This document shows, piece after piece, positions 31,119 to 49,507 of a stretch of DNA of 64,000 bases. The notes beneath the pieces are model-generated. The model did no database searches, was not told the DNA's origin, and saw only the letters and a list, made by a program, of their open reading frames with translations. The DNA comes from an archaeon (GTDB lineage Archaea; Nanobdellota; Nanobdellia; Woesearchaeales; UBA9642). The stretch spans positions 59,312 to 123,311 of the forward strand of contig JAGVGF010000004.1 of the NCBI GenBank assembly GCA_020057295.1. Direction: 5' to 3'. A program made the position numbers and the translations under genes. The first letter of the stretch is position 1. The number at the start of each line of letters is the position of its first letter.

Positions 31119-31493
31119 CTATCTATATTGCCTGTTTTCTGTCATATAAGTCATTCTTAAATTTTCGAGGTCGTTGTGTACATATTTTAATAGATATTCA
31201 TTATAACGCTGTAATGCTTCGTGACTTCCAAGCAATTCTCCTGCTCGTGCGCGTTGAGAAATATTTAATAATGTATCTATGTGTCTTCGCGCGGTTGGTG
31301 GTGTTGTTAGTAAGATTGTTATATCTGTAAATTCCTGTACTAACGCTTTCTTTACATCAGCATTTGTGACTTCTTTTCTTAGCAATCTGTTTCCGTCATG
31401 TTCTCCAAATACAAAATAGAAGAATATTTCCTGCAAATTTTGAACATGACTCATGTTGTAAGAAAAGCAAAACCTATTTAAATATGTTACCAT
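31119..31493 (-). CDS. Hypothetical protein, divergent from the primase gene
   Basis: ORF only. Confidence 0.3.
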   Translation of the reverse strand: MVTYLNRFCFSYNMSHVQNLQEIFFYFVFGEHDGNRLLRKEVTNADVKKALVQEFTDITILLTTPPTARRHIDTLLNISQRARAGELLGSHEALQRYNEYLLKYVHNDLENLRMTYMTENRQYR

Positions 31494-33340
31494 TTTTGGA
31501 TAGTAATGGGGGTCTTATGGGACGCGTTGATTTAAGTATGTTTGTAGATGAATTATTATCACAGACAGATATTACGGAGCATATTGGACAAGTCGTATCT
31601 TTGAAAAAAAGAGGAAGCACATACTGGGCATGTTGTCCGTTTCATGAGGAAAAAACAGCGTCATTCCATGTTGATCCAAAAAAAGGTCTCTATAGTTGTT
31701 TTGGTTGTCACAGAGGAGGCAATCTTCTAACATTTTTTATGGAATATCAAAAGTTGAATTTCATTGAAGCAGTAAAATTTCTTGCAGAAAAAGAGGGCAG
31801 ACCGATGCCCGGATTTATGCATGAACGTGGAGAAAAAAATGCACATACAAGAGAAATACTCGAAGAGGCATTAACATATTTCACATCAAAATTAGAGACG
31901 TATCCAGAAGTCTACTCTTATCTTACAAGTGAAAGACGAGGATTAAATCCTGATACAATAAGAGAATATAGACTAGGATATGCTGAGCCTGGTTGGGATG
32001 GTTTGCTTAATCATCTTCGTGGAAAAGGATTTAGTATCGAAGATTTAATCAGGCAGAACCTTATATCAAAGAAATCATCGGCAGGAGAAAAATCCGAGTC
32101 ATTTAATGATTATTATGATCGTTTTCGTGGTAGAATAATAATTCCTATTTTTAATCATTTAGGTCAACTTACTGGATTTGCAGGACGTGTATTCAAAGAA
32201 GAGGATGCACAATATGGTAAGTATATTAATACAGCTGATGATACTCCTTTTGGCAAAACATCATATGTAAAGAAAAACACCTTGTTCGGTCTTGATAAGG
32301 CAGCACAATCAATCATTGACTTAGGAGAGGCAATATTAACTGAAGGATATTTTCATCATATAAGCAGTCACCAATCAGGTTTACTGAATGTTGTAGCATC
32401 TGGAGGTACTGCATTTACAAAAGAACAAGCAACACTTCTAAGAAGATATGCTGATAAGATATTAATATTAATGGACCCTGATGCAGCAGGAATAAGAGCT
32501 GCACGCACAGCTGCAGAGATAAGTTACGGTTTAGGTTTTAGTCCAAGATTAGGATTACTTCCAGAAGGCAAAGATCTTGATGATATCTCTAGAGAGTGCA
32601 AAAATAGAGATGCTATATTGCAAAGAATTTCTTTTATGGATATTCCACAATTCATAATACATACTACACAATACGATAGGAGTAATCCCGATGATGTTCA
32701 TCGTACATTAGAGGATTTAGCTAAATTCTTTTCTTTAGAAAAAAATGCTGGAAGAAAATTATTATGGATAAGCGAAACATCAAAAAGTCTTGATGTGCCG
32801 AAGGAAATTATTCATTCCTATATAAGAAAAGATATTAGAGAACCAGAAATTGATAGTGATACCATACCAGATACGTTGGTTAAATCGTACATTTATCATC
32901 TTCTAACAGCTCCTAAGGATTATAGAGCTACATTTCTTAGTGAGATACCTTGTGAAAGTAGAGTATTTAGATTCAATAAAGGTTTACAGATACTTTACAA
33001 AACCATTATAGAAGAGAGTCGCAAGAATCCTCAACAAAATTTAGATATTGAACCGCCAAGATTAGAAGAGTTAGATTTTGGAGTAATAAGGAGAGAACAA
33101 ATATTTGATTATTTAAGGAAAAAATTTATGGAGAGAACAATAGAACAATTTCCTTTTGAATTACAAGAATTTCTTTATAAAAAACCTAAAATAGATTTTA
33201 AGACAACTGTTTCATTATTAAGACATTACGTAAAAGAGTATCAACGCCAAGATTTAGTGCAGGGATTAGCAGAAGCATATAGAACAGAAAATGAAGAATC
33301 AATAAAAAGGATTTCAGAAGAGCTAAGAACATTAACATAA
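31484..33340 (+). CDS. dnaG: Bacterial-type DnaG primase (CHC2 zinc finger plus TOPRIM) with an extra C-terminal domain; the likely start is ATG 31517
   Basis: WACCPFHEEKTASFHVDPKKGLYSCFGCHRGGNLLTFFMEY zinc-binding domain and TOPRIM ILTEGYFH...ILILMDPDAAG. Confidence 0.8.
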   Translation: MLPFLDSNGGLMGRVDLSMFVDELLSQTDITEHIGQVVSLKKRGSTYWACCPFHEEKTASFHVDPKKGLYSCFGCHRGGNLLTFFMEYQKLNFIEAVKFLAEKEGRPMPGFMHERGEKNAHTREILEEALTYFTSKLETYPEVYSYLTSERRGLNPDTIREYRLGYAEPGWDGLLNHLRGKGFSIEDLIRQNLISKKSSAGEKSESFNDYYDRFRGRIIIPIFNHLGQLTGFAGRVFKEEDAQYGKYINTADDTPFGKTSYVKKNTLFGLDKAAQSIIDLGEAILTEGYFHHISSHQSGLLNVVASGGTAFTKEQATLLRRYADKILILMDPDAAGIRAARTAAEISYGLGFSPRLGLLPEGKDLDDISRECKNRDAILQRISFMDIPQFIIHTTQYDRSNPDDVHRTLEDLAKFFSLEKNAGRKLLWISETSKSLDVPKEIIHSYIRKDIREPEIDSDTIPDTLVKSYIYHLLTAPKDYRATFLSEIPCESRVFRFNKGLQILYKTIIEESRKNPQQNLDIEPPRLEELDFGVIRREQIFDYLRKKFMERTIEQFPFELQEFLYKKPKIDFKTTVSLLRHYVKEYQRQDLVQGLAEAYRTENEESIKRISEELRTLT

Positions 33341-33401: not shown

Positions 33402-35372
33402 ATGATACTAAACATTTCTGGTCACAATTATACGTTGAGAGATTTTGAGAATGTAAGGCAAGAACTTCATAAATTCTATGAACGCTATGGAAAGAAAAAA
33501 CAGCCTACACAAGTTATGATTAGAACAAAAAATCCTTCATTATATCATCAGTTAAGATTGTGGGGATATAAATTATCAGGAAAGGGTTCGCCGAGATATG
33601 CTATAAAAGAAATGGGTCGTGATATAAAGACTGTGTTAAGTTTAGATGAAATAAAGGAACAGTTCAAATCTGTTTTTAACCCAGAATATGTCTCTAAATT
33701 TTATGGTACTCCAGGAAAGCGTGTGAGCATAAAAAAAGAAATGCTCGATGCTGGTCAGAGACAAAAACAAGCGTATTTTGCATGTTTTTTTAAAAAGAGA
33801 AATCTTTCTTTAAAAGATATTATTAATGGATTACACGGAGAACATCCTGATCTTTATGATGCGTTACATGGGTCTTTATTAACTAACGAAGTTATTGGCG
33901 ATAATTTAATAGATTTATATTATCAAGGTAAAGATTTATCTCCTGGTGCTATTGAGCGTACAAATAGTATTGGAAGCAGAATTAAGCATCAATTACAAAA
34001 AAGTATAAAGTCTGATAAAGGTTCTGAAAAATATTGGCATAATATGCTAAAATTCTTGCCTATCCCTAGAATAAATATTTCTGATTTACGTAGTGACGGT
34101 CAAGACGCTAGAGCTGTTATGTCACAAATAGTTGAATTACAGGCACAATTTTTATTAGAAATAGTAAAAAAATATGATCCTGAATGTTCTTCGATGAGTG
34201 ATACATTTAAAAAATTATTTGGACCAAAAATTACTGCAATATATCCAAGAAGTAATCAAGGCATGGTAGAGTTAGAGAATGGCAATACATTTGCTGATGC
34301 ACGTATACAATCCGGTTTAGAAGATATACTTTTAGAAGTAAAGAACAAAAATCTTTTAACAGACAGCCTTCATAAAAGACTAAGAAAATATGATTCTAAA
34401 CATTATTGGAATGATTCTAAAAGAATAACAAAAAAAGTTCTATTAGTAAACACAATCGATGAATGTGTAAGTGAGCATTTTGAGAGGTTTGAAAGGAAAG
34501 GTTGGGATGTTTGGAATACAACACAATTTTTTGAAGATTATAAAAAAGCAATAGATATTTTAATGCAAAATGATCCTTTGTTTTTCCAGAAATCTATGAT
34601 GCCTATGCAAAGTCAAGAATTAATGATGGATATTGCTAAGGAGATAACAACCACACCTCACCTACTTATGAGAAGATCACATGCATACAAAAGAAATTGG
34701 ATCAAGACATTACTTAAAGAAAATATTTTAGCTCTCACAAAAAATATTCCTAATCACGAAAGAGAAAATTATGCTGAATGTTATCGTGAACCATTTCTGG
34801 TTTTCGATCAATACTATCATGGTCGTGAAAAAGTATCTGTTCCTAACGTGTTGTTCGTAGATCTTGAAACAACAGGACATCTTAAAAATGGATCAATGAT
34901 TGTTGTTTTAGGGATGGCATATATGCATGAAGGACAGATGTATACAGAACTATTATTTGCCAGAAATCCTCAAGAAGAAAAAAGAATCTTAGAACGATTT
35001 AATCAACTATCACAACAATATGATACCATAGCGACATTTAACGGAGATTCTTTTGATAAACCCTTTTTACAAGAACGATTAAATGCTCATCTTATACGCT
35101 ATCCCAAAGAATGGAATCATGTAGATGTATATAAGAAATATAAACAAATAGCTAAAAAAAATAAATATCCTACAGCATCGCTACAAACATATGAGAGAAC
35201 AGAGTTAGGCTTAATAAGAAGAGGCGATATTTTAGGAAAAGATATTCCTCAAGCATATAAAGATTTTATAAATGGTATTGACGATCATACTATAAAGAAA
35301 GTTATTACTCATAATCATCTTGATGTAATAAGCTTAGCAATAATTTACGATCAATATTATCAGAAGAAATAA
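33402..35372 (+). CDS. Large hypothetical protein with a C-terminal RNase H-like (DEDD/YprB-type) 3'-5' exonuclease domain
   Basis: VLFVDLETTGH (Exo I), FNGDSFDKPFL (Exo II) and HNHLDVISLAIIYDQY (Exo III-like). Confidence 0.55.
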   Translation: MILNISGHNYTLRDFENVRQELHKFYERYGKKKQPTQVMIRTKNPSLYHQLRLWGYKLSGKGSPRYAIKEMGRDIKTVLSLDEIKEQFKSVFNPEYVSKFYGTPGKRVSIKKEMLDAGQRQKQAYFACFFKKRNLSLKDIINGLHGEHPDLYDALHGSLLTNEVIGDNLIDLYYQGKDLSPGAIERTNSIGSRIKHQLQKSIKSDKGSEKYWHNMLKFLPIPRINISDLRSDGQDARAVMSQIVELQAQFLLEIVKKYDPECSSMSDTFKKLFGPKITAIYPRSNQGMVELENGNTFADARIQSGLEDILLEVKNKNLLTDSLHKRLRKYDSKHYWNDSKRITKKVLLVNTIDECVSEHFERFERKGWDVWNTTQFFEDYKKAIDILMQNDPLFFQKSMMPMQSQELMMDIAKEITTTPHLLMRRSHAYKRNWIKTLLKENILALTKNIPNHERENYAECYREPFLVFDQYYHGREKVSVPNVLFVDLETTGHLKNGSMIVVLGMAYMHEGQMYTELLFARNPQEEKRILERFNQLSQQYDTIATFNGDSFDKPFLQERLNAHLIRYPKEWNHVDVYKKYKQIAKKNKYPTASLQTYERTELGLIRRGDILGKDIPQAYKDFINGIDDHTIKKVITHNHLDVISLAIIYDQYYQKK

Positions 35373-37963: not shown

Positions 37964-38083
37964 AGCCCCGTAGTGTAGCGGTCAATCATGCAGGCCTTTG
38001 GTGGCAAAAATCAAAGATTTTTGAAAATCTTTGTCAAATGCCAAAGATAGCCTGTGACCCCAGTTCGAATCTGGGCGGGGCTA
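37964..38083 (+). tRNA. tRNA-Gln (UUG) with a 47-nt intron (38002-38048); integration target
   Basis: A1-U72 acceptor AGCCCCG/CGGGGCT, archaeal Gln-like D region, anticodon stem CAGGC/GCCTG with loop CUUUGG|A, exon-intron helices CTTTGG/CCAAAG and TGGCA/TGCCA, T arm CCCAG-TTCGAAT-CTGGG. Confidence 0.8.
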
Positions 38084-38169
38084 GTTTATTCTATCGTGAA
38101 AGTGAAGGGCTAAATCAGTACCAAAACTGTACTGAGAATATAAAAGTAAACTCGTCTAAACGTAGTTCT

Positions 38170-39306
38170 ATGGTGAAAATTCATCCAGAAGGACGCATAA
38201 TAGACAAGAAGTATTTATGGAACGGAGTACTTAATTTAACTAATTCTATTGAAAGAAGCGATATGCTTCAAGAGAATAAAGATTTGATAGGGCGATTTAT
38301 TCATGATGCCAGAATTGGTAAAACAATAAAGATAGGACAAAAAAAGCAAGTTGCCATCTTGCGTCAAGTAAAATATCTACAAGACCTAAAAAAACTTGAT
38401 GCTTACTTCAGGAAACCACTTGATAAAATAACACAATTAGAAATGGAACAGTTTATTCTTGATTTGGAGGAAGGTCGATTAAAGAAAAATAATGGGCAAC
38501 CATTCGCTAAAGAAACACAAGTATGTATGAAAAAAATTATAATTAAGTTCTATAAATGGTTGTTTGGTAAGAGTCGAACAGTGCCTGAACTTGTAGATTG
38601 GATAGACACAAGCATAGAAGTTAGAGACTATAAAGCTATACGAAAAGAAGACGTAGACACAATTTTAATTAGATATACCAGTAATACTACAGAAAATTTA
38701 TTGCGAAACAAAGCTATTATTATGTTTTTGTTTGACAGTGGAGCAAGAGCAGATGAACTTCTTAATGTGCGTTTGAATCATTTAACAATAGAAAATGGAA
38801 ATTATAAAGTTCGTATAGAATATTCTAAAACAAAGAAAAGAACTCTGTCTTTACCTTTTTCTAAGGAGTACCTTGATGCATGGTTAAAAGTTCATCCTGC
38901 AAAAGATGAACCATTGGCGCAATTATTTCCTGTAACGTATGCAGGATTATGCAATGTAGTTCATAGAGGTGGAGAATTAGTTAAAAAGAAACTAACTCCT
39001 CATGGTTTAAGACATAGCTCAGCAACACATTGGGCAAGAACGTTGTCGCAGTATGTTTTATGTGGACGTTTTGGATGGAGTATGAATAGTAAACAGCCTG
39101 CAAGATATATTGATAGAGAAGGATTAGACCAAGAGAAAGTACAAGAACAAGCTACTGCTGATAAAGTCATATCTTTAGAAAGCAAAAATTCACAGTTAAA
39201 TAGCAGAATAGCAATGCTAGAAGACCAGTTTGAAAAATTCTTCAAAGGAGATAAAGAAGAACTGATAAAGATAATTGATATCGTGAAAAAACAAAAGGAA
39301 TTATAA
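38170..39306 (+). CDS. int: Tyrosine recombinase/integrase (phage-integrase family); start re-set downstream of the tRNA
   Basis: HGLRHSSATHWA box II and the catalytic Tyr region QPARYIDRE. The listed ORF start at 38038 lies inside tRNA-Gln. Confidence 0.85.
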   Translation: MVKIHPEGRIIDKKYLWNGVLNLTNSIERSDMLQENKDLIGRFIHDARIGKTIKIGQKKQVAILRQVKYLQDLKKLDAYFRKPLDKITQLEMEQFILDLEEGRLKKNNGQPFAKETQVCMKKIIIKFYKWLFGKSRTVPELVDWIDTSIEVRDYKAIRKEDVDTILIRYTSNTTENLLRNKAIIMFLFDSGARADELLNVRLNHLTIENGNYKVRIEYSKTKKRTLSLPFSKEYLDAWLKVHPAKDEPLAQLFPVTYAGLCNVVHRGGELVKKKLTPHGLRHSSATHWARTLSQYVLCGRFGWSMNSKQPARYIDREGLDQEKVQEQATADKVISLESKNSQLNSRIAMLEDQFEKFFKGDKEELIKIIDIVKKQKEL

Positions 39307-39494: not shown

Positions 39495-40745
39495 ATGACT
39501 GATGCACCAACAACTCTTAATAAAAATTCTGCAAAAGAAGTTAAAGGAAAATTCGGACAGTATTTAGAAAAATATTATTTTGGCATTGAAAATAATTCGA
39601 TTAGCGAACCTGATTTTAAAGAAGCAAAATTAGAATTAAAGAGTACGCCTATTAAACGTCTAAACAATGGAACATACACACCAAAAGAAAGATTAGTGTT
39701 AAATATTATTGATTATTGCGCTATTATTGAAGAGAAATGGGAAACATCTCACTTCCTCAGTAAAAATGAATTATTATTGTTAATTCTATATCTATACGAA
39801 ACAGATAAAAATTTTCTAGATTATCTAATAAGATATGTTACCCTTTGGAAAATTGAGGGTGCAGATAGAGAAATGATTAGACAGGACTGGGAAAAAATAG
39901 TTTCTAAAATAAAATCCGGTAAAGCCCACGAATTATCAGAAGGAGAAACATTTTATTTAGGTGCATGTAGAAAAGGATGGAAAGAAGAACCTAGAAAACA
40001 ACCTAATTCTCCGATTAGAGCGCCACAGAGAGCGTTTAGTTTTAAAGTTAAATATATGAGTGCCGTATTAAAGAGATTAGAAGATTCACAAAAACTAATC
40101 ACAGATATTTCTGAACTAAAGAAAAATAGTTTTGAAAATTTAGTGTATAATAAATTTCAACCGTTCTTGAATATGAATATAAAAAATATTGAACAAAAAT
40201 TACATACAAAACTAAATAGAAAATCAAAAGGTTACTATGCAGATTTAGCTAGGAGAATGATGGGAGTTTCAGCTAAGTATATCGAAGAATTCGAGAAGGC
40301 AGGCGTATCAATGAAAATAATACGTTTGAAACACAACGGCGTTCCAAAAGAAGATATGTCTTTTCCATATTTTAAATATAAAGAAATTGCAGAACAAGAG
40401 TGGGATGAGAGCAATTTTAGTGAACAATTAGAAAGCAAATTCTTTTTTGTAGTTTATCAAATGAATAAAGATGAATCAAAAATATTTTTTAAAAAAGCAT
40501 TTTTTTGGAATATGCCTATAACAGATATGGCTGAATGTGAAGCAGTCTGGATTGAAACTAAAAAAAGAATTATTTCTGGGAAAGCAGATACTTTACCTAA
40601 AAAAATAGAGAATAGAGTTTCTCACGTCAGACCTCACGCAAGAAATAAACAAGATACTGATATAGCACCTAATGGAAAATTATATGTAAAAAAATGCTTT
40701 TGGTTGAATTCTAAATACTTAAAAGAACAAATAGAAAATAATTAG
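39495..40745 (+). CDS. MutH/Sau3AI-family type II restriction endonuclease (probable GATC specificity)
   Basis: GQYLEKYYFGIENNSISEPDFKEAKLELKSTPIKR...WETSHFLSKNEL parallels MutH GVLLEIWLGASAGS...DFAALGVELKTIPVD...WETSHVRHKL, with the D-(x)n-E-x-K catalytic motif. It is convergent with and overlaps the C5 methyltransferase. Confidence 0.7.
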   Translation: MTDAPTTLNKNSAKEVKGKFGQYLEKYYFGIENNSISEPDFKEAKLELKSTPIKRLNNGTYTPKERLVLNIIDYCAIIEEKWETSHFLSKNELLLLILYLYETDKNFLDYLIRYVTLWKIEGADREMIRQDWEKIVSKIKSGKAHELSEGETFYLGACRKGWKEEPRKQPNSPIRAPQRAFSFKVKYMSAVLKRLEDSQKLITDISELKKNSFENLVYNKFQPFLNMNIKNIEQKLHTKLNRKSKGYYADLARRMMGVSAKYIEEFEKAGVSMKIIRLKHNGVPKEDMSFPYFKYKEIAEQEWDESNFSEQLESKFFFVVYQMNKDESKIFFKKAFFWNMPITDMAECEAVWIETKKRIISGKADTLPKKIENRVSHVRPHARNKQDTDIAPNGKLYVKKCFWLNSKYLKEQIENN

Positions 40746-42442
40746 TTCTTGATTAAAGAAACAAAGTATCCGCATGCATATGCACCAATTATTGTTAATA
40801 ACGGTATCTCTGCTCTTTCAATCTCTATAAATTTATTTTCTATCGATACAGCTTCTTGATTAGTATAGTGTTTAGTTATTAATTTTCTTATTAGTTCTAA
40901 TGCTTTATCTGGGGAAACAACTTTAGATTTTCCATTTAACACATATGATTCTTGTAATTCTCTTGCAGATAATTTGAAATCTTTGAAAGAGTTTTCTAAG
41001 TCTTTTTTAAATGTGGAGAAATTTTTATTTGAGAATAGTACTTTATCTAATTTTTTTAAATCTAGGATTGCAACCTTCGCGCTCTTGCCAGAACCGTAAT
41101 GTACTTTAGACTTCCAAACGTATTTTCCTTTAGAAAATTCAGAATCTGTGTTACTAAGTTCTACTCTGAAGCTTTTAATCTTTAAATAAGGTATTGGAAT
41201 TGCAAATCTCGCATCTTTGGCTCGTGGTTTTGGAACTTTAGGACTTCTTTTTATTCCAGTCAAATCAAAAGAAGATTTTATGATTTTTTGAGGAATGTAT
41301 TCTTGAATTTTTGTTCTTTCTGCTTTTGCAATAGCTTCTGCCAAAGCCGAAGATAATTTACAACATACTGCATTTCCGATTAATTTATATTTAGTATTTT
41401 CGTTTGCTCCTTCGAACTGATATGTTATGGGGAAAGACATAAAACATGCGATTTCTCTTATTGTAGGCAATCTATATCCTGTTTGCTTGTTTGATTTAAT
41501 TGCTTCAAAGATTATAGATTCTCTTGTTGATGCTGACATAGTTGCCATAACTGTTCTACTAGGTCTATCTAGATATTCTGGAAAAGACATTTTTCCCATA
41601 AATCCGTGGTCTTCTTTTAACCTTTTTGACCTCATCCATTCATAATCTGCAACGCTAGTATCATAGAAGTGGTCAGTTAAATTTTTTGAATCTAATTCAA
41701 AACCATATACTGGGTCTTTTATTTTTGAAGGATGAGTTATATCTAGTGGATTAGATAATGCTTTTTGAACATTACGCATTGTAATCCAAGATTTTTTATC
41801 TTCGTGACTTTTATATGGTTCAGGATAATTTCCACATACGAATCTTTTTCTAGTTTGTGGCGCACCATACTCTGCAGCATTTAATATTCCTTTAACAGGA
41901 ATTTCTATAGCGATTTTTTTTCCGCCAGGCAATCCCAATTCTTCCCAAGTGTATGAATCTTGAATATATTTCCCTGAATTAGGAACATTTTCCAAAATCC
42001 AATACTTGCATGTGCCTTTTTTTAGCTTTACAGCAATTATTCTTAGATACGCTTTGATAAGTCTTATACCTAAACTTTTATCAGCCTTTCCAGCTTTATT
42101 TGAGCCTGAAAAAGAAACACATGGAGGACTTCCGACAATAATGTCTGTGTCTGGAACAATATTTTCTATCTTTTCTATAGTATCTAACTCTAATATGTCC
42201 ATTAATTCACATTGACAATCAGGATGATTTAAATCATGAGTCTTCTTGGCTGGTGCCCAATTATCTAGAGAGAAAACTACATCAAATCCTTTTTGACGAA
42301 ATCCTTCTGAGAATCCACCAGCACCACAGAAAAAATCTGCTACTGTTAATTTTTTACTCACCATTATACTAGTTATATTGTATCTATTTTTAAAGTTTTC
42401 GATCGATTGTCCAATGATTTTATGATTAAGTATTTTAAACAA
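40742..42442 (-). CDS. dcm: DNA (cytosine-5) methyltransferase
   Basis: Motif I FFCGAGGFSEGF, motif IV GSPPCVSFSGSN (catalytic PC), motif VI WILENVPN. Confidence 0.85.
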   Translation of the reverse strand: MFKILNHKIIGQSIENFKNRYNITSIMVSKKLTVADFFCGAGGFSEGFRQKGFDVVFSLDNWAPAKKTHDLNHPDCQCELMDILELDTIEKIENIVPDTDIIVGSPPCVSFSGSNKAGKADKSLGIRLIKAYLRIIAVKLKKGTCKYWILENVPNSGKYIQDSYTWEELGLPGGKKIAIEIPVKGILNAAEYGAPQTRKRFVCGNYPEPYKSHEDKKSWITMRNVQKALSNPLDITHPSKIKDPVYGFELDSKNLTDHFYDTSVADYEWMRSKRLKEDHGFMGKMSFPEYLDRPSRTVMATMSASTRESIIFEAIKSNKQTGYRLPTIREIACFMSFPITYQFEGANENTKYKLIGNAVCCKLSSALAEAIAKAERTKIQEYIPQKIIKSSFDLTGIKRSPKVPKPRAKDARFAIPIPYLKIKSFRVELSNTDSEFSKGKYVWKSKVHYGSGKSAKVAILDLKKLDKVLFSNKNFSTFKKDLENSFKDFKLSARELQESYVLNGKSKVVSPDKALELIRKLITKHYTNQEAVSIENKFIEIERAEIPLLTIIGAYACGYFVSLIKN

Positions 42443-42511: not shown

Positions 42512-43723
42512 ATGAAAGAAGTAAAAGAGACACTAAAAAATACTAATTTTAGAATATACAAATATGTATTTGTTATTGATACAAATATATGTTTTAATAA
42601 ACGGTTTAGTTATGATGTCCTTAACAATAGATTGCTCAAGGAATTAATAGAGATTAGAGATGAGTATAATTTACATAATTCTCTTGGAAATATAAGTCTA
42701 AATATCCCTCAAATAGTTAAAGAAGAAAGATTATTTCAAAAAAAGCAAATTTTCAATACCAATAAACCCAATATCGGAAATAGATTGAAAGAACTTAATG
42801 ACCTGGAATTAGTAAATAAATTTGAAGATGTTCTCAAACAATACCCCTCTAAACTAGAGAATAATTTAGAAAAAGAATTACAGAAGGATAAAATATTGAC
42901 TATCCCTTATTGTGATGATAGTTACTTAAAAGAAATAATAAAAAAAGCCGTTGACAAAAAAACGCCCTTTAGAGCAGTAACTATTACAAATAATGAATTA
43001 ATCGGGGAGCAGGGATTTAAAGATTGCGTATTATGGTATTCTATTTTTTCTCATGCAATGAAAATTCCGCGCAAAACTCCTCATATATATGTATTACTAA
43101 CAGCTAATATTAGAGATTTTAATAGCGTTGATAATATTAAAGAATTTGAAGACAAAACAGGGCATAAAATAAGAATAATTAATTATGCTTTGAAAACAAA
43201 TGAATTGAACAAGATGTTTATGGAAGATTTTAAAACATATCAAATACATCATGTAGAAATAAATTATAAATTAAAAGAAAATAATTCTTATGTATCTAGC
43301 GCCAATATATATAGCGATGGATTGATATTTGATGTTTCTTTAGAAAATAAATCATATATTGGAGAAATCTCTCTTCAGAAAGCTGATATTATCAAAGATA
43401 TTGAAGAAGAATTGGGAAGGGAAATATCTTCTGATGTCAGCGTAGAATTTATACTTGATGAGATAGCAGAGATATCTGTTTCTATAGAATACTATAAATG
43501 GTTCTATAGAATATCTAGCATAAATCTATGGTATTCCAATGGTGATGAAGAAGAAGTTGACTATAAATTTTATGATGGGATGGAATGGGTTTTATTAGAA
43601 GATGAAGAGGGAAATTCTAAAAAATTTGAAACAGATGTTTATGAACTTTTAAAAGAAGCAGGATATGATTGCGATGATGTAAATATAAATTATAGTGTCA
43701 CAGAATATACTGAAGATGATTAA
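42512..43723 (+). CDS. Hypothetical protein with an N-terminal PIN-like motif and an acidic C-terminus
   Basis: YVFVIDTNICFN resembles a PIN first strand with Asp. The rest is not recognisable. Confidence 0.35.
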   Translation: MKEVKETLKNTNFRIYKYVFVIDTNICFNKRFSYDVLNNRLLKELIEIRDEYNLHNSLGNISLNIPQIVKEERLFQKKQIFNTNKPNIGNRLKELNDLELVNKFEDVLKQYPSKLENNLEKELQKDKILTIPYCDDSYLKEIIKKAVDKKTPFRAVTITNNELIGEQGFKDCVLWYSIFSHAMKIPRKTPHIYVLLTANIRDFNSVDNIKEFEDKTGHKIRIINYALKTNELNKMFMEDFKTYQIHHVEINYKLKENNSYVSSANIYSDGLIFDVSLENKSYIGEISLQKADIIKDIEEELGREISSDVSVEFILDEIAEISVSIEYYKWFYRISSINLWYSNGDEEEVDYKFYDGMEWVLLEDEEGNSKKFETDVYELLKEAGYDCDDVNINYSVTEYTEDD

Positions 43724-43736
43724 TTTTTTTTTAAAG

Positions 43737-45305
43737 TTACATAAAGAATTTATAATGATTTTGTAATTGGCTACCTTTATCAAGTTCAGATAATACTTCG
43801 CCGACTCTTGAAGAAAATGCTAACGTTATGGGCATATAAATCGAAAATGCAGTCGTATTCCAATTTAATTTTGTTAATCCTAATATTTCATCAGCAACTT
43901 CTTTGATACTTGAATCGCCTATATGAGTAAGTAATAATGGTTGAGGTATGCTGTGACCCGGGTACGTTCTAATGCGAGGTATATATCCTGAAGTGTATAA
44001 TATATGTTGACTATCTGTTAGCGATATTAAAGTTCCTCTTAATACTGGATAAGACCCGGAACGCAAAAATCTAATTCCGAAATTACGTTTAGATAATGTC
44101 ACAAAATCTTTTTGTAAATTACCTATTGCCCTGCTAAAACCTTGTTTTTCTGCATCAGAGAATAATGATTTTTTATGGATAACTACGCGAATAGGATTTC
44201 TTTTAGCTTTCTCAATATATTTTTCAATTACATTCTTTAATAAGTCTTCTGATTGTTTCTCGGTTAAATGTGGTTCTCTTGTTTTTTCATCTATATACAC
44301 TTCTGTGCCTCTCAAGACTAATCCATCACCTGTGTGTGTAAATACTTGCGCCATTGATGTTTGCATGTCGTTATTATAGCTTAATTTATCTTTATAAAAA
44401 GAAATGCCTACATAACAAGTATCATCCCTTAACTTTGCTAACCTCCAAGGTTTACCGTTGGCTTTATAGAATAATGCTGTTGAAAAATTCCATGCAAATG
44501 ATGCGGGTTCTTGTCTAGATGCTCTCATGTCTTTATTATAATTTAATATTGCATCCGCAGTTGATTCCCTAAGAATTTGAATAGGTTTGGCGGATTTATG
44601 AGCCATTAGTTTTCCCTTTAATGCATTTCTAAAATCAAAACCTTTAATTTTTTTCTCTGTTTTAATTTCTGTAACAATACACCAATCGGTTAAAAACTTT
44701 TGATTATTTTTTTGAAAGTCTTGAATCTGTTTTTCTAAATCAGTAAATTTGGCTGTTTTAGCTCCACGAGTATGCTCAGAGATTCCACAATAATCTTCTA
44801 TTTGTTTAGGTAAAGAACAGATAATCACATCTGGTAAAGAATCTTCATCGAGTATGTTATTAATTTTTTTTAAATATATCTCCACAGCTTTTCCTATACG
44901 CTCATTAGTATCTAATATTTTGAGTAAATGGTCAATTTCATCCATCGAGATTATCTGCTCCCATACGTTTGATAGTTCTATAGTGCACTTAAAATTAGTT
45001 TTAGAATTCATTCCAGGAAAATCAGGATATAACCATTTATTACTTTCTCCTGTATGTATTTCTGATTTTAGTTTAGATATTATTTGTTTAGTTTTTTCTA
45101 TGCTATTCTTGTCACCAATAATTCCAATTTTGATATTATCTAAATTTTCAGGTTTAGTGGAGAATTGAAATGGACCAAATTCTCTTAATCCTATCCGAGG
45201 GTCTTTTTCTTCGGAACGTCCTCCAAATATTAATTCTTTTTCCTCTAAAAATAATGTATTAAATGTCATTAATTTCCTCATCAGCATATATTTCATCATC
45301 TGCAA
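43737..45305 (-). CDS. Short prokaryotic Argonaute (MID-PIWI only), predicted catalytically inactive
   Basis: PIWI hallmarks ANGKPWRLAKLRDDTCYVGISFYKD (G-x-PW plus a GIDV-like strand with Ser in place of the catalytic Asp) and a C-terminal SIYMPITLAFSSRVGEVL (the P-x-YYA...R-x-R analogue). About 520 aa, too short for N/PAZ domains. Confidence 0.7.
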   Translation of the reverse strand: MQMMKYMLMRKLMTFNTLFLEEKELIFGGRSEEKDPRIGLREFGPFQFSTKPENLDNIKIGIIGDKNSIEKTKQIISKLKSEIHTGESNKWLYPDFPGMNSKTNFKCTIELSNVWEQIISMDEIDHLLKILDTNERIGKAVEIYLKKINNILDEDSLPDVIICSLPKQIEDYCGISEHTRGAKTAKFTDLEKQIQDFQKNNQKFLTDWCIVTEIKTEKKIKGFDFRNALKGKLMAHKSAKPIQILRESTADAILNYNKDMRASRQEPASFAWNFSTALFYKANGKPWRLAKLRDDTCYVGISFYKDKLSYNNDMQTSMAQVFTHTGDGLVLRGTEVYIDEKTREPHLTEKQSEDLLKNVIEKYIEKAKRNPIRVVIHKKSLFSDAEKQGFSRAIGNLQKDFVTLSKRNFGIRFLRSGSYPVLRGTLISLTDSQHILYTSGYIPRIRTYPGHSIPQPLLLTHIGDSSIKEVADEILGLTKLNWNTTAFSIYMPITLAFSSRVGEVLSELDKGSQLQNHYKFFM

Positions 45306-46779
45306 TATCTAATGTAAATTCACTAGAAGGCATATCAAATAATATTCCTGCATTAATTTTTATTTCTACAGGTTTAGAACATATTGTCATATAATCAGTT
45401 AATAATATGTCTTTGCTAGTTCCTAATTGATATATCCAGAATAATACTGTATTAAGATAAATACTGTTATATTTACTATATGATAATCTGGTAATTATGG
45501 TTCCAATAGTAAAATTAGATATTGGGTTTCTCCCATTTTCAGTTATTACAAAAGTAGGGAGAATTCGGATATAAAATCTATCTCTTAGGTGTAATACATT
45601 CACTGAAAAAGCTATATGCCAGTATATCGATTTCTTTATTTGTTCTGCATACATTTTGGCTGCCACTGTCTTATTAGATTTACGATATCTACTTTGCCAA
45701 ACTTCTTTTCTAGATTCAGATTCTGAAGGATAGAAGAAATTATCTTTGTCTTGATTATGCCATAATCCTCGCGATATAATAAAATGTTTTATTTCTCTAT
45801 TAAGAAGCTCGATTATTTGTGGGTGTTTATCTGCGTTTGTAATCCATTGTTGTAACGAAGTCTTACATATAGTTTTTGTATCGACTAATTGTCTATATGG
45901 ATTATCATTATCTTGTAAATTTTCAAAAGTAATCAATTTTTTATTCCAAAATTTAAATTTGTAATAGAATTCCGGAAAAATTTTGTTTTGTTTTAATAAT
46001 GTTTTAATAGATACATTGTCATAATTTAGACTGTCTGCTTCATAAACATATTTAGGTACAGATGTTATTTCAAATAAATTTGAGTACAGCGTTTCTTCTA
46101 CCATGTCAGGTTCTCCACCCAGCAAAGAAAGTCGGTAATTTTCATTTCTTATGCGCTTATTAATTAAGGTAAGTTCATAGGCGCCCGGAACTACATTTTG
46201 CGTGCCTCTGCGATAAAATATGTCTCCTATCTTGAAGACTACATGTTCTTTTCCATCAATAGTATATTTGCCTTCTTTTTTAGGGCTAAGTAATGTGTGT
46301 GATGGAGGGATATATATTAATGCAAAACGTTTAGATATAGAATTTATTTTTTCTAGAACCTTTGCATCTGTGGTGGAATAATTTCCTTGAAAATTATTTT
46401 CAAATTCAACATATCCTATCTCCATATCGCTGTTACTATATGAATTAAATTTACTTTGTAAATCGGCTTGGTCAACTGAATATTCTTCAGGTAATCCCAC
46501 TGGCACGAATTGATTTTTTTTATATTCTTCCCAACCTATTAACATCCAACCGCCACCGTAATTTGAAAATGCAAACATGTCCTTCGCTAAATTAGGGAAG
46601 GTAGAATTTTTATCAATACTAATTATTTTTTTAAAGTCCAAAAAGGGTGATTCTTTTTTCTGAGAACACAAATAGCTGATTATATTAGGACCTAGAGGAT
46701 TCTCTTCTAAACCATTAAGTACAATTCCCCCGATAATTTTCTTTGTATTCATACAGTCTCCTAAGACAAGTATCTTCAA
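45259..46779 (-). CDS. pAgo-associated partner with an N-terminal AlbA_2/Schlafen-type domain and an uncharacterised C-terminal half (candidate APAZ-like)
   Basis: KKESPFLDFKKII...FAFSNYGGGWMLIGWEE...VPVGL matches the AlbA_2 (Schlafen N-domain) E-x-x-x-EFK ... AFaN-GGG-l-iGv pattern. The gene is directly upstream of the short pAgo and overlaps it by about 10-45 nt. Confidence 0.5.
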   Translation of the reverse strand: MKILVLGDCMNTKKIIGGIVLNGLEENPLGPNIISYLCSQKKESPFLDFKKIISIDKNSTFPNLAKDMFAFSNYGGGWMLIGWEEYKKNQFVPVGLPEEYSVDQADLQSKFNSYSNSDMEIGYVEFENNFQGNYSTTDAKVLEKINSISKRFALIYIPPSHTLLSPKKEGKYTIDGKEHVVFKIGDIFYRRGTQNVVPGAYELTLINKRIRNENYRLSLLGGEPDMVEETLYSNLFEITSVPKYVYEADSLNYDNVSIKTLLKQNKIFPEFYYKFKFWNKKLITFENLQDNDNPYRQLVDTKTICKTSLQQWITNADKHPQIIELLNREIKHFIISRGLWHNQDKDNFFYPSESESRKEVWQSRYRKSNKTVAAKMYAEQIKKSIYWHIAFSVNVLHLRDRFYIRILPTFVITENGRNPISNFTIGTIITRLSYSKYNSIYLNTVLFWIYQLGTSKDILLTDYMTICSKPVEIKINAGILFDMPSSEFTLDIADDEIYADEEINDI

Positions 46780-48473: not shown

Positions 48474-49472
48474 ATGAAACAAAATCATATTGAGTATGCA
48501 AAAAAACTACATTTAGCCGCATTACTACCGCGTGCATTTTATTTGCATAGAAAAAAAATTGCATGGGACGTATTACAAATACTTTCAGTTGAGAAAAAAT
48601 TAGATATGACTCAAATAAAAACGTATTTCCTATTTCTTTCAGTTTATTTTAACGAATCAAATCAAGTCAATAAACGAAAAAAATTTTATAGTATTAACGG
48701 TGTATATCCTTTAATATGTGCTTTGAGCAAATCGTATAAAAAAAATAAAATCTTCTTATCAACTAACAGAACTGAATTACTTAAAAATTTAAATGCTCTT
48801 AAAAAAACAGGATTAATCGCCAAGAAATCTTTTAAGAGAGAACTTGAGATATATCCTACCTTATTTTCAAATGTAAAATATTCGAAAAAAACAAAGAAAA
48901 AAACATTGAACAAAAAAACAATACAGCCAATCGGAGAGTACGCAAATTTTTGGAGTATCCACTACTTAGGCGATGACCCTGATAACAAATGGATATTAAA
49001 ACCTAATGAACCTAAATGTTTTCCATTAGAATTAACTAGACCTGAAGAACCAAGAAACATTTTCCCCGTCACTTTATGTGCAGTCAAAGACATACTAGAA
49101 GATTTCTTCCTTAACACTAATAAATCATTCGAGAGCCAGGTTATGACTAAACACTGCGATGTGTTTTATAAAATGATATTCAAAGAAAACATTTCATCTC
49201 ATGACATGATAGATATTCTACAAAAATATTTATGGGATGAATCCGGACTACCTACAAAAAACTTTTTATTCACAGTTTCTGAGAAAGATATAGAACTACA
49301 TTTAAAAAAATTAAAAAAATTTAACAATAAGTATATAGATATAAAACCCGAAGCTTTAAAAAATCAAGAGTATGACTTAGATTTATCAGAGAGGTTAAAA
49401 GAGCAAATCAACATATGGTATAATTTGGAGGGCAAAAATGAAAAAAACAATAAAAGAAAATCAGCCCAATAA
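48474..49472 (+). CDS. Hypothetical basic protein, last gene before attR
   Basis: ORF only, K-rich. Confidence 0.35.
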   Translation: MKQNHIEYAKKLHLAALLPRAFYLHRKKIAWDVLQILSVEKKLDMTQIKTYFLFLSVYFNESNQVNKRKKFYSINGVYPLICALSKSYKKNKIFLSTNRTELLKNLNALKKTGLIAKKSFKRELEIYPTLFSNVKYSKKTKKKTLNKKTIQPIGEYANFWSIHYLGDDPDNKWILKPNEPKCFPLELTRPEEPRNIFPVTLCAVKDILEDFFLNTNKSFESQVMTKHCDVFYKMIFKENISSHDMIDILQKYLWDESGLPTKNFLFTVSEKDIELHLKKLKKFNNKYIDIKPEALKNQEYDLDLSERLKEQINIWYNLEGKNEKNNKRKSAQ

Positions 49473-49493: not shown

Positions 49494-49507
49494 TCTGGGC
49501 GGGGCTA
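49494..49507 (+). repeat. attR: 14-bp direct repeat of the tRNA-Gln 3' end (TCTGGGCGGGGCTA)
   Basis: Exact match to 38070-38083. Confidence 0.7.

Follow-up and report, generated by a model that had tools for sequence, protein, structure and literature searches.

A short Argonaute paired with a Schlafen–APAZ protein on a tRNA-Gln-integrated island: a putative guide-directed RNA-cleaving defence module

Organisation of the locus and its island

The window, a stretch of 64,000 nucleotides, contains two overlapping genes on the minus strand, which encode a short prokaryotic Argonaute (pAgo) and, upstream of it, a partner protein in which a Schlafen (SLFN)/AlbA_2 domain precedes an APAZ domain. 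The pair lies on an island bounded by two att sites and shared with an integrase, a restriction-modification system and a PIN_12-domain protein:

37964-38083, plus strand: tRNA-Gln(UUG) with a 47-nt intron at 37/38 (Rfam tRNA model, 49.2 bits; gathering score 29)
38070-38083: 3' end of tRNA-Gln, TCTGGGCGGGGCTA, the attL of the island
38038-39306, plus strand: tyrosine integrase of the island (Pfam Phage_integrase, 2.2e-11)
39495-42442: Type II restriction-modification pair (Pfam and PADLOC), made up of the next two genes
39495-40745, plus strand: MutH/Sau3AI-like endonuclease (Pfam MutH, 4.3e-40; PADLOC REase_II, 1.7e-87)
40742-42442, minus strand: C5 cytosine methyltransferase (Pfam DNA_methylase, 2.3e-37; PADLOC MTase_II, 6.6e-45)
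42512-43723, plus strand: PIN_12-domain protein (Pfam PIN_12, 5.3e-14), convergent with the pAgo gene, with 13 nt between the stops
43737-45269, minus strand: short pAgo, MID-PIWI only, 510 aa, S2B-like by sequence (PADLOC and PDB sequence matches; ORF open to TTG 45305)
45259-45269, minus strand: 11-nt overlap, ATGACATTTAA, with the pAgo start codon inside the 3' end of the partner gene
45259-46752, minus strand: SLFN-APAZ partner gene, 497 aa (ORF open to TTG 46779)
49494-49507, plus strand: attR, identical over all 14 nt to the tRNA 3' end (direct repeat, 11.4 kb downstream)

The intron-bearing tRNA-Gln beside the integrase was missed by ARAGORN and found by Rfam alone, its anticodon UUG being read from the sequence. 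The 14-nt att sequence matches the window twice, where 0.00 matches are expected (100 shuffles), and the Argonaute module is cargo of an 11.4-kb element integrated in tRNA-Gln. The start of the integrase ORF overlaps the tRNA, so that the protein probably begins at M45 (38170). A preliminary description, made from the letters of the DNA, had set the module next to a restriction-modification system within an integrative element of an archaeon; the tRNA-Gln target and the att duplication bear out the element, and the archaeal host is likewise upheld, probably as a member of a DPANN lineage.

The two ORFs occur on the minus strand exactly where that description had put them, at 43737-45305 (522 aa, TTG) and 45259-46779 (506 aa, TTG), but their real starts lie further in. 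Public annotation and homologue alignment place these at ATG 45269 for the pAgo (510 aa, MTFNTLF...) and at ATG 46752 for the partner (497 aa, MNTKK...), where GGAG is located 6 nt 5' of the start codon. The overlap that had been reported between the genes is real, but from these starts, and as read directly from the sequence, it spans 11 nt and not 47 nt; overlaps in related loci range from about 0 to 38 nt, with 11 nt the commonest. An antisense ORF of 104 aa within the pAgo gene (44854-45168, plus strand) is regarded as spurious.

The pairing of pAgo and APAZ protein is strict, being kept in 27/27 distinct related loci that can be judged, and the neighbourhoods of these loci hold no further conserved adjoining gene. 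The PIN_12 gene was considered as a third component and rejected, as none of 28 distinct related loci contains a homologue. The SLFN-APAZ relatives form about 50 sequence clusters with an almost wholly archaeal distribution, and in those from Thorarchaeota the effector, APAZ and MID-PIWI are fused in one polypeptide. Searches with the partner by tblastn returned nothing from phage records and, from plasmids, nothing but a DUF4365 protein that was matched in its APAZ part.

The setting, an island integrated at a tRNA and equipped with an integrase and a restriction-modification system of its own, could also be taken to mean that the pair serves the element, by addiction or stabilisation or by attacking competing mobile elements, with host defence as a side effect; a Nitrosotenuis relative that adjoins an integrase, HerA and a restriction-modification system points the same way. 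We hold this to be highly improbable: the Methanoperedens copy is flanked by housekeeping and toxin-antitoxin genes, no integrase being seen in its neighbourhood, and the proposal would in any case change the beneficiary rather than the molecular mechanism.

The Argonaute and its Schlafen–APAZ partner

Two regions of the pAgo bear on its function:

44397-44408, minus strand: PIWI strand GISF replacing the catalytic G-x-D-x strand, with S290 at the first DEDX position
44463-44630, minus strand: MID pocket for the 5'-phosphate guide end, R214, K218, Q231, N261 and K269 (510-aa numbering), of RK/HK type (family alignment)

The PADLOC model pAgo_I matches the pAgo over its full length (E=1.5e-150, profile positions 3-455 of 455), and a PDB sequence search recovers solved short pAgos with E-values of 4e-71 to 1e-55, among them the SPARDA Ago (9jsb_A, 4.4e-71), the SPARHA Ago (9om4_B, 8e-65) and the SPARTA Agos (about 1e-55 to 1e-57). 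The end-to-end alignment of the 510-aa protein with solved short pAgos of 471-507 aa shows it to consist of MID and PIWI, without N or PAZ. The bit scores in the same search run from SPARDA (243) and SPARHA (222) to SPARTA (about 195) and SPARSA (88), a best-hit ranking that by itself suggests an S2B-like clade. The identification relies on PADLOC and the PDB because the Pfam PIWI and MID models gave no match and NCBIfam yielded a sub-threshold RsAgo-type match only; of the domains that the preliminary description expected from a Pfam/CDD profile search, AlbA_2 was found in the partner, whereas PIWI and MID were not found by Pfam in the pAgo. An identical 510-aa sequence is present in NCBI/JGI, labelled 'hypothetical protein'.

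The motifs originally quoted for the pAgo (ANGKPWRL, YVGISFYK and PITLAFSSR) are all in the translation, and the GISF strand together with the full-length PADLOC and PDB matches supports the reading as a short, inactive MID-PIWI protein. Position 290 is Ser in 21/23 family members and Ala in the other two (2/23), and S290 aligns with the GISF of the SPARDA Ago. In addition, H365-K366 and F485 are invariant among the 23 members; we take the former to be the site of R-D-G in active Agos and the latter the fourth tetrad position, by comparison with the hAgo2 and TtAgo motifs. With the positions beyond the first mapped by these motifs, the PIWI domain appears to lack the DEDX catalytic tetrad. The same absence has been described for all short pAgos (Koopal 2022). 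The putative guide pocket corresponds to the (H/R)-K-Q-N-K motif defined by Ryazansky 2018, with K218, Q231, N261 and K269 invariant among the 23 family members and position 214 occupied by Arg (17/23), His (5/23) or Trp (1/23); the C-terminal M510 is also invariant.

The partner can be divided into an N-terminal effector region, an APAZ domain and a tail:

45262-45339, minus strand: disordered C-terminal tail rich in acidic residues, FDMPSSEFTLDIADDEIYADEEINDI, a possible auto-inhibitory mimic of nucleic acid
45340-46110, minus strand: APAZ domain (PNTD1-PNTD2), residues 215-471, predicted pAgo-binding module (PADLOC, PDB and Foldseek)
46195-46653, minus strand: Schlafen/AlbA_2 domain, residues 34-186 (497-aa numbering), predicted effector nuclease
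46630-46653, minus strand: nuclease motif ESPFLDFK, that is, E34-x4-D39-x-K41 (homologue alignment)

The APAZ domain, which had been put forward as a mere possibility, is matched by the PADLOC models Aga_REase-PNTD1-PNTD2 (1.6e-32, residues 224-480 of the 506-aa ORF) and SIR2-PNTD (3.5e-29), as well as by the HNH-APAZ chain 9om4_A in the PDB sequence search (2.4e-14). The full-length AF2 model (mean pLDDT 86) gives the same chain as its best Foldseek match (1.3e-15, TMt 0.77), followed by SPARDA and SPARTA APAZ chains. Residues 471-497 have pLDDT < 50 in this model, and the last 28 residues of the protein contain 10 Asp/Glu and no Lys/Arg, a bias that is shared by the family (means of 9.9 D/E and 1.9 K/R over 53 homologues). 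By analogy with the acidic C-tail of SPARTA, this segment is a candidate for auto-inhibition.

The N-terminal domain matches Pfam SLFN_AlbA_2 (PF04326) with 32.6 bits against a cut-off of 25.3 (E=1.3e-7), spanning residues 43-195 of the 506-aa ORF and profile positions 1-114 of 118, and PF04326 is present in all full-length partner homologues. Because the full-length Foldseek search is dominated by APAZ matches, the fold was assessed with a separate N-domain model, which conforms to a Schlafen fold with low Foldseek TM-scores (0.3-0.4); sequence-profile matches to solved SLFNs are individually weak (E 0.008-0.07), the best in the PDB being CbCash. Both Pfam and the modelled fold thus assign the N-terminal 200 residues to Schlafen. 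The PADLOC models for TIR-, SIR2-, DREN- and HNH-type partners align from residue 210 onward only, that is, with APAZ alone, and Pfam and PADLOC profiles detect no SIR2, TIR, Mrr/DREN or HNH domain in the partner. NCBIfam returned nothing for the partner, and neither protein contains a GHKL ATPase (PF13749) by Pfam and NCBIfam. The AlbA_2/Schlafen assignment and the absence of SIR2, TIR and Mrr hallmarks, both anticipated in the preliminary description, are confirmed by these searches, and the quoted partner motifs ESPFLDFKK, FAFSNYGGGWMLIGWEE and VPVGL are all in the translation.

The motif ESPFLDFK is followed by the Schlafen box FAFSN (N64) and by GGGWMLIGWEE with the third acid, E76, and follows the definition E(x)4(D/E)xK plus SAFAN (Kuzmenko 2026). 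E34, D39, K41, N64, G66, G68 and G73 are invariant in 53/53 homologues. Position 76 is Glu in 41 of these, Gln in 7, Pro in 4 and Lys in 1; with the third acid absent in 12/53, the family as a whole does not keep to the classical three-acid site. The catalytic centre of CbCash is E17-D22-K24 (Cash paper 2026), and both CbCash and RzAgo are killed by mutation of residues equivalent to E34/D39/K41. By analogy, the Schlafen domain is predicted to be a metal-dependent tRNA/RNA endonuclease. The variability of E76, the fact that several mammalian SLFNs are without catalytic residues, and older annotations as a 'DNA-binding domain' (Ryazansky 2018) or predicted 'regulatory ATPase' (2018 FEMS review) would each suit a domain that is not catalytic at all, but binds nucleic acid or regulates, sequestering targets or acting through some as yet unnamed host nuclease. 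We consider this very unlikely, given the invariance of precisely those three residues that are essential in CbCash and RzAgo, the lack of a detectable ATPase domain (Pfam, NCBIfam) and the lack of any other gene conserved beside the pair.

Proposed mechanism and significance

We consider it probable that the two genes form a short-pAgo defence module of S2B-like type, in which a guide directs Schlafen cleavage of tRNA or RNA with an abortive outcome. The MID-PIWI pAgo is unable to cleave, keeps a pocket for a 5'-phosphorylated guide and would act as sensor. The translationally coupled upstream gene supplies an APAZ domain predicted to bind the pAgo in place of the missing N/L1/L2 region and, as putative effector, an N-terminal Schlafen domain of the C-lobe-type AlbA_2 kind. 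Translational coupling and the natural SLFN-APAZ-pAgo fusions lend indirect support to a heterodimer of the two proteins. We infer that this heterodimer loads small guide RNAs and that, before a target is bound, the nucleic-acid channel may be filled by the partner's acidic C-tail, which would be expelled when the guide pairs with invader DNA. Oligomerisation mediated by the pAgo (dimers, tetramers or filaments, by analogy with SPARTA, SPARDA and SPARHA) would then bring the Schlafen domains together into a composite, metal-dependent E-D-K active site, and the ensuing cleavage of tRNA (or of RNA in general) would stop translation, kill or arrest the cell and abort the infection or the establishment of a plasmid. 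The mode in which the Schlafen domains assemble is conjectural, because RzAgo needs a GHKL ATPase for this step, which is absent here. What the sequences establish is the identity of the domains, the integrity of their motifs, the strict pairing of the genes and the existence of natural fusions, whereas complex formation, the nature of guide and target, oligomerisation and tRNA as the substrate are inferred.

The substrate could also be RNA other than tRNA, or DNA. Indeed, SPARDA and SPARHA, which have the nearest counterparts of both the pAgo and the APAZ domain, use collateral DNases as effectors, and SLFN-family domains bind DNA, with SAMD9 and SLFN5 entries annotated as DNA or DNA/RNA binding. 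On the same sensor and scaffold, Schlafen might therefore act as an indiscriminate DNase, or DNase/RNase, on genomic and invader DNA. The Schlafen/AlbA_2 nucleases characterised in the sources consulted (RzAgo, CbCash, mammalian SLFNs and the SAMD9 tRNase domain) nevertheless cut RNA, mainly tRNA, and we regard a DNase as unlikely.

The preliminary description had called the effector type unreported, which does not hold. Guo et al. 2023 name Schlafen/Alba in their introduction as one of the domains fused to APAZ, an APAZ orthogroup with a Schlafen domain appears in Ryazansky et al. 2018, and the Cash paper 2026 links a Schlafen cluster to short pAgos. RzAgo, a fused long-B SLFN-pAgo, already demonstrates that an Argonaute sensor can cooperate with a Schlafen tRNase (Kuzmenko et al. 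2026 preprint); our literature searches found no experimental study of SLFN-APAZ with short pAgos. The conceptual picture is unchanged, since surveys already record the pairing and specialists would expect such a mechanism. If the proposed mechanism is correct, a Schlafen RNase would add translation shut-off by tRNA cleavage to the effectors of short pAgo systems, which in those characterised so far are NADases (SIR2, TIR) and DNases (DREN, HNH), and the pair would represent a second independent architecture of Argonaute-Schlafen cooperation besides fused RzAgo. The locus is an intact and compact two-gene archaeal example on a defined mobile island, and with the roughly 50 relative clusters and the single-chain fusions it offers ready constructs for biochemistry. 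A broader proposal stands for us in even balance: that these pairs form an archaeal, element-borne class of guide-directed tRNases, in which pAgo and APAZ alone, with no GHKL ATPase as in RzAgo, assemble C-lobe-only Schlafen domains into an active nuclease gated by the acidic C-tail, and that the single-chain fusions of the Asgard Thorarchaeota place an Argonaute-Schlafen partnership in the archaeal lineage closest to eukaryotes.

Comparison with known systems

The closest systems are SPARHA and SPARDA, two-gene operons in which the gene for the APAZ-effector protein likewise precedes that for an inactive MID-PIWI pAgo. They provide the best sequence and fold matches of both pAgo and APAZ, and a similar activation by guide-RNA/target-DNA binding and oligomerisation may be expected. 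In contrast to their HNH or PD-(D/E)XK DNases acting on DNA, the effector here is Schlafen/AlbA_2 with tRNA or RNA as the expected substrate, and the SLFN-APAZ type is almost wholly archaeal.

RzAgo of Runella zeae shares with the locus an inactive Argonaute sensor and a C-lobe-type Schlafen domain with E(x)4(D/E)xK and a SAFAN box; in RzAgo, recognition of DNA through the guide is what permits tRNA to be cut (Kuzmenko et al. 2026 preprint). RzAgo differs, however, in being one extra-long polypeptide, a long-B pAgo that has both N and PAZ and whose tetramerisation is driven by a GHKL ATPase, whereas the locus has a short pAgo, APAZ on a separate protein and no GHKL domain; moreover, the same preprint sees no more than a distant relationship between its clade II and the SLFN domains found in SLFN-APAZ proteins (Kuzmenko et al. 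2026). The locus is not a member of the RzAgo-type SLFN-pAgos, yet probably works in a similar mode.

With SPARTA the locus shares the predicted heterodimer architecture and the acidic disordered C-terminal tail of the partner. The SPARTA tail blocks the guide-target channel until target is bound; SPARTA differs in its TIR NADase effector, its clade (S2A) and its bacterial distribution. CbCash is likewise a prokaryotic Schlafen protein with an E-D-K centre, a tRNase with Mg2+ at that centre that becomes active on forming a higher-order oligomer; sensing there falls to a Csx15 cA4-binding domain, which acts downstream of type III CRISPR, and not to an Argonaute/APAZ pair. The single-chain Thorarchaeota relatives parallel SPARSA-A, the SIR2-APAZ-pAgo fusions of clade S1A, differing from these in having Schlafen rather than SIR2 as effector, while the locus in the window is split into two genes. 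By its effector, which is none of TIR, SIR2, DREN (DUF4365) or HNH, the locus lies outside SPARTA, SPARSA, SPARDA and SPARHA.

The short Argonaute and its partner gene

The two minus-strand open reading frames at 43737-45305 (522 aa) and 45259-46779 (506 aa), each opening with TTG, almost certainly encode a short Argonaute (pAgo) and a partner protein that joins a Schlafen (SLFN) domain to an APAZ domain. The preliminary description had read the two genes in this way and its account is confirmed, both frames and every peptide motif it quoted being present in the minus-strand translations. According to homologue alignments and the public annotation, the pAgo actually starts at ATG 45269 (510 aa) and the partner at ATG 46752 (497 aa), the latter preceded by GGAG 6 nt upstream. 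The two genes therefore share 11 nt, ATGACATTTAA, and the start codon of the pAgo lies inside the last codons of the partner. Residue numbers refer to these shorter forms unless the ORF is named.

Features of the gene pair
43737-45269, minus strand: pAgo gene (PADLOC pAgo_I, solved short pAgo sequences)
45259-46752, minus strand: partner gene
ORF residues 43-195 (34-186 of the 497-aa protein), minus strand: SLFN_AlbA_2 domain of the partner (Pfam)
ORF residues 224-480, minus strand: APAZ (PNTD1-PNTD2) of the partner (several PADLOC partner models)
45262-45339, minus strand: acidic C-terminal tail of the partner (AlphaFold2 pLDDT, residue counts)

The pAgo is not recognized in a Pfam profile search, where PIWI and MID had been expected; rather, it is matched from end to end by PADLOC pAgo_I (E=1.5e-150). 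Among solved structures, PDB sequence searches rank the Agos of SPARDA (9jsb_A, 4.4e-71; 9qbp/9qbl, ~1e-67) and SPARHA (9om4_B, 8e-65) ahead of those of SPARTA (~1e-55 to 1e-57) and one of SPARSA (5e-24), these being short pAgo systems with DREN, HNH, TIR and SIR2 effectors, respectively, while long pAgos match at only ~1e-4. By this match ranking, the protein probably belongs to clade S2B. In an alignment of 23 pAgo genes recovered from related loci, the PIWI domain is catalytically dead, with no acidic residue at its catalytic positions: S290 of the GISF strand is serine in 21/23 and alanine in 2/23, and H365-K366 (R-D-G in active Agos) and F485 of PITLAF, which we take to be catalytic positions by mapping from eukaryotic/TtAgo motifs, are invariant. 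Short pAgos in general are without DEDX (Koopal et al. 2022). The 5'-phosphate pocket of the MID domain is intact, with K218, Q231, N261 and K269 invariant in the 23 sequences, as is the C-terminal methionine, and with position 214 occupied by R (17/23), H (5/23) or W (1/23). Judged from these residues, the pocket is of the RK/HK type given for short pAgos by Ryazansky et al.

Schlafen domain, APAZ region and acidic tail of the partner

The AlphaFold2 model of the partner, built on 53 homologues, consists of two well-folded domains followed by a disordered C-terminal end (mean pLDDT 86). The Schlafen domain scores 32.6 bits with Pfam SLFN_AlbA_2 (gathering score 25.3) and contains ESPFLDFK, FAFSN and GGGWMLIGWEE, matching the nuclease signature of prokaryotic and mammalian proteins, namely E(x)4(D/E)xK, the SAFAN box and a glycine/hydrophobic stretch (Kuzmenko et al.). 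E34, D39, K41, N64, G66, G68 and G73 are invariant among the 53 homologues, and E76, the equivalent of the third acid of mammalian SLFN, is conserved in 41 of them and replaced by Q in 7, by P in 4 and by K in 1. In the CRISPR-associated Schlafen (Cash) study, E17-D22-K24 constitute the catalytic centre, with Mg2+. Older surveys treat the Schlafen domain as a DNA-binding or regulatory ATPase module, but the residues that inactivate RzAgo (the Runella zeae SLFN-pAgo) and CbCash when mutated are exactly those that are invariant here, which counts against such a role and argues for the domain being an active nuclease, as we predict from sequence. Pfam and NCBIfam searches find no ATPase domain in the partner or the pAgo.

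The APAZ region is matched by the PADLOC models REase-APAZ (1.6e-32), SIR2-APAZ (3.5e-29) and TIR-APAZ (2.2e-11). All of these matches begin past residue 210, thus the REase, SIR2 and TIR effector domains are absent from the partner. Among solved proteins, the HNH-APAZ chain of SPARHA is the closest in sequence (9om4_A, 2.4e-14, APAZ region only), and Foldseek comparison of the model with the PDB retrieves APAZ chains of SPARHA, SPARDA and SPARTA (best 1.3e-15, TM 0.77 on the target). The last 26-28 residues are disordered (pLDDT <50) and strongly acidic, with 10 D/E and 0 K/R; over the last 28 residues, the 53 homologues average 9.9 D/E versus 1.9 K/R, the whole-protein composition being 14.8% acidic and 14.1% basic. 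This family-wide tail resembles the auto-inhibitory acidic C-terminal tail of SPARTA TIR-APAZ, and by analogy a SPARTA-like gate is plausible.

Recurrence of the pair and its mobile setting

Full-length relatives of the partner number 108 at 90% clustering, all with PF04326. The family is small, since only 48 of 1.84 billion 50%-identity representatives match at E<=1e-30 and weaker matches cover the APAZ half only, within other architectures. When each species is represented by a single genome, scanning yields 25 full-length loci, of which 24 are archaeal (Methanoperedens, ANME-1, Archaeoglobus, Woese-, Nano- and Micrarchaeota, Nitrososphaeria, Bathyarchaeia, Thermoplasmata, Thorarchaeota). 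The remaining one, in a MAG labelled Gammaproteobacteria (L014, contig CATQGX010000003.1), carries the same SLFN-APAZ and short pAgo pair at 40% and 51% identity, which suggests horizontal transfer or mis-binning.

The search for homologous pairs proposed in the preliminary description reveals strict pairing: a pAgo homologue (46-70% identity) lies directly downstream on the same strand in 27/27 distinct loci uncut by a contig end, with loci from an exact look-up added and four near-identical Methanoperedens copies counted as one. Outside this count stand one locus that ends within the partner gene and one that gives just pAgo residues 1-49 before the contig end. The overlaps range from ~0 to 38 nt, 11 being the commonest, and no other neighbour is conserved across the related loci. 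In three Thorarchaeota MAGs, the pair is fused into a single ORF of 967-981 aa, in which SLFN_AlbA_2, APAZ and the whole of MID-PIWI are matched.

Single-frame loci (ORFs of ~950-980 aa)
L026:5980-8925, L027:5965-8874 and L028:1694-4597: fused ORFs of Thorarchaeota MAGs, SLFN_AlbA_2 + APAZ + MID-PIWI
L025:5986-8847: uncultured archaeon, one continuous frame spanning APAZ and pAgo

The pair resides on an 11.4-kb island whose integration target is tRNA-Gln(UUG), a gene missed by ARAGORN because of a 47-nt intron at canonical position 37/38. The att duplication, the integrase and the endonuclease and methyltransferase genes bear out the integrative element and neighbouring restriction-modification system of the preliminary description.

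Features of the island
37964-38083, plus strand: tRNA-Gln(UUG) (Rfam 49.2 bits; anticodon read from sequence)
38070-38083, plus strand: attL, last 14 nt of the tRNA, TCTGGGCGGGGCTA
49494-49507, plus strand: attR, exact copy of attL (0.00 matches expected by chance)
listed start 38038, plus strand: tyrosine integrase, starting inside the tRNA gene; true start likely M45 at 38170
between the att sites: MutH/Sau3AI-like endonuclease and C5 methyltransferase
42512-43723, plus strand: PIN_12-domain protein, 403 aa, convergent with the pAgo, 13 nt between stop codons
47350-47871, minus strand (173 aa), and 48474-49472, plus strand (332 aa): ORFs unmatched in Pfam/NCBIfam

No related pAgo locus contains a PIN_12 homologue, so this gene may act in its own right, in defence or as a toxin. 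The genes flanking the island are archaeal in type (S15, L37Ae, Rad50, archaeal RecJ), GC is ~30%, and it is in Woesearchaeota that the closest relatives of the pAgo occur (69-70% identity), which makes a DPANN host likely. Relatives likewise occupy defence-rich or mobile surroundings, with Fic, ParE, PIN and HicAB toxin-antitoxin genes in Methanoperedens, and an integrase, HerA, a BsuBI/PstI restriction-modification system and GmrSD in Nitrosotenuis. Elsewhere in the window, a DnaG primase of bacterial type, bearing a CHC2 zinc finger (31484-33340, plus strand; TIGR01391, 319 bits, above cut-off), sits in otherwise archaeal surroundings and is followed by a 656-aa ORF of unassigned family (33402-35372, plus strand); the segment 31484-35372 may be another acquired or mobile one.

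Proposed action and relation to known systems

By analogy with characterised relatives, the pAgo and SLFN-APAZ proteins would form a heterodimer that takes up 5'-phosphorylated guide RNAs and recognises invader DNA. Target binding would displace the acidic tail and set off pAgo-mediated oligomerisation, for which SPARTA tetramers and SPARDA/SPARHA filaments are precedents, and would thereby juxtapose the C-lobe-only Schlafen domains, which require pairing for a working nuclease in RzAgo and in CbCash filaments. Cleavage of tRNA would then stop growth. We consider such a tRNase-based abortive-infection mechanism somewhat the better bet for this pair.

Contrary to what the preliminary description proposed, the effector type is not unreported, and a specialist would not be surprised by the locus. 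An APAZ orthogroup with a Schlafen domain appears in Ryazansky et al. 2018, 'Schlafen/Alba' is among the APAZ-appended domains of Guo et al. 2023, and a short-pAgo-linked Schlafen cluster is defined in the 2026 Cash paper. The SPARHA paper of 2025 still assigns 'additional uncharacterized effectors' to S2B. Our literature search found no experimental study of an SLFN-APAZ short system; thus, the locus is a further case of a catalogued, biochemically uncharted subclass. Together with its relatives, the single-chain Asgard fusions foremost, it offers good material for the first biochemistry of a Schlafen-armed short Argonaute. These fusions have an S1A-like single-chain architecture, but with a Schlafen effector. 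The window pair does not belong to the RzAgo-type SLFN-pAgo family (long-B), as it is without GHKL, N or PAZ domains and consists of two polypeptides, and it is distinct from SPARTA, SPARSA, SPARDA and SPARHA in its effector.
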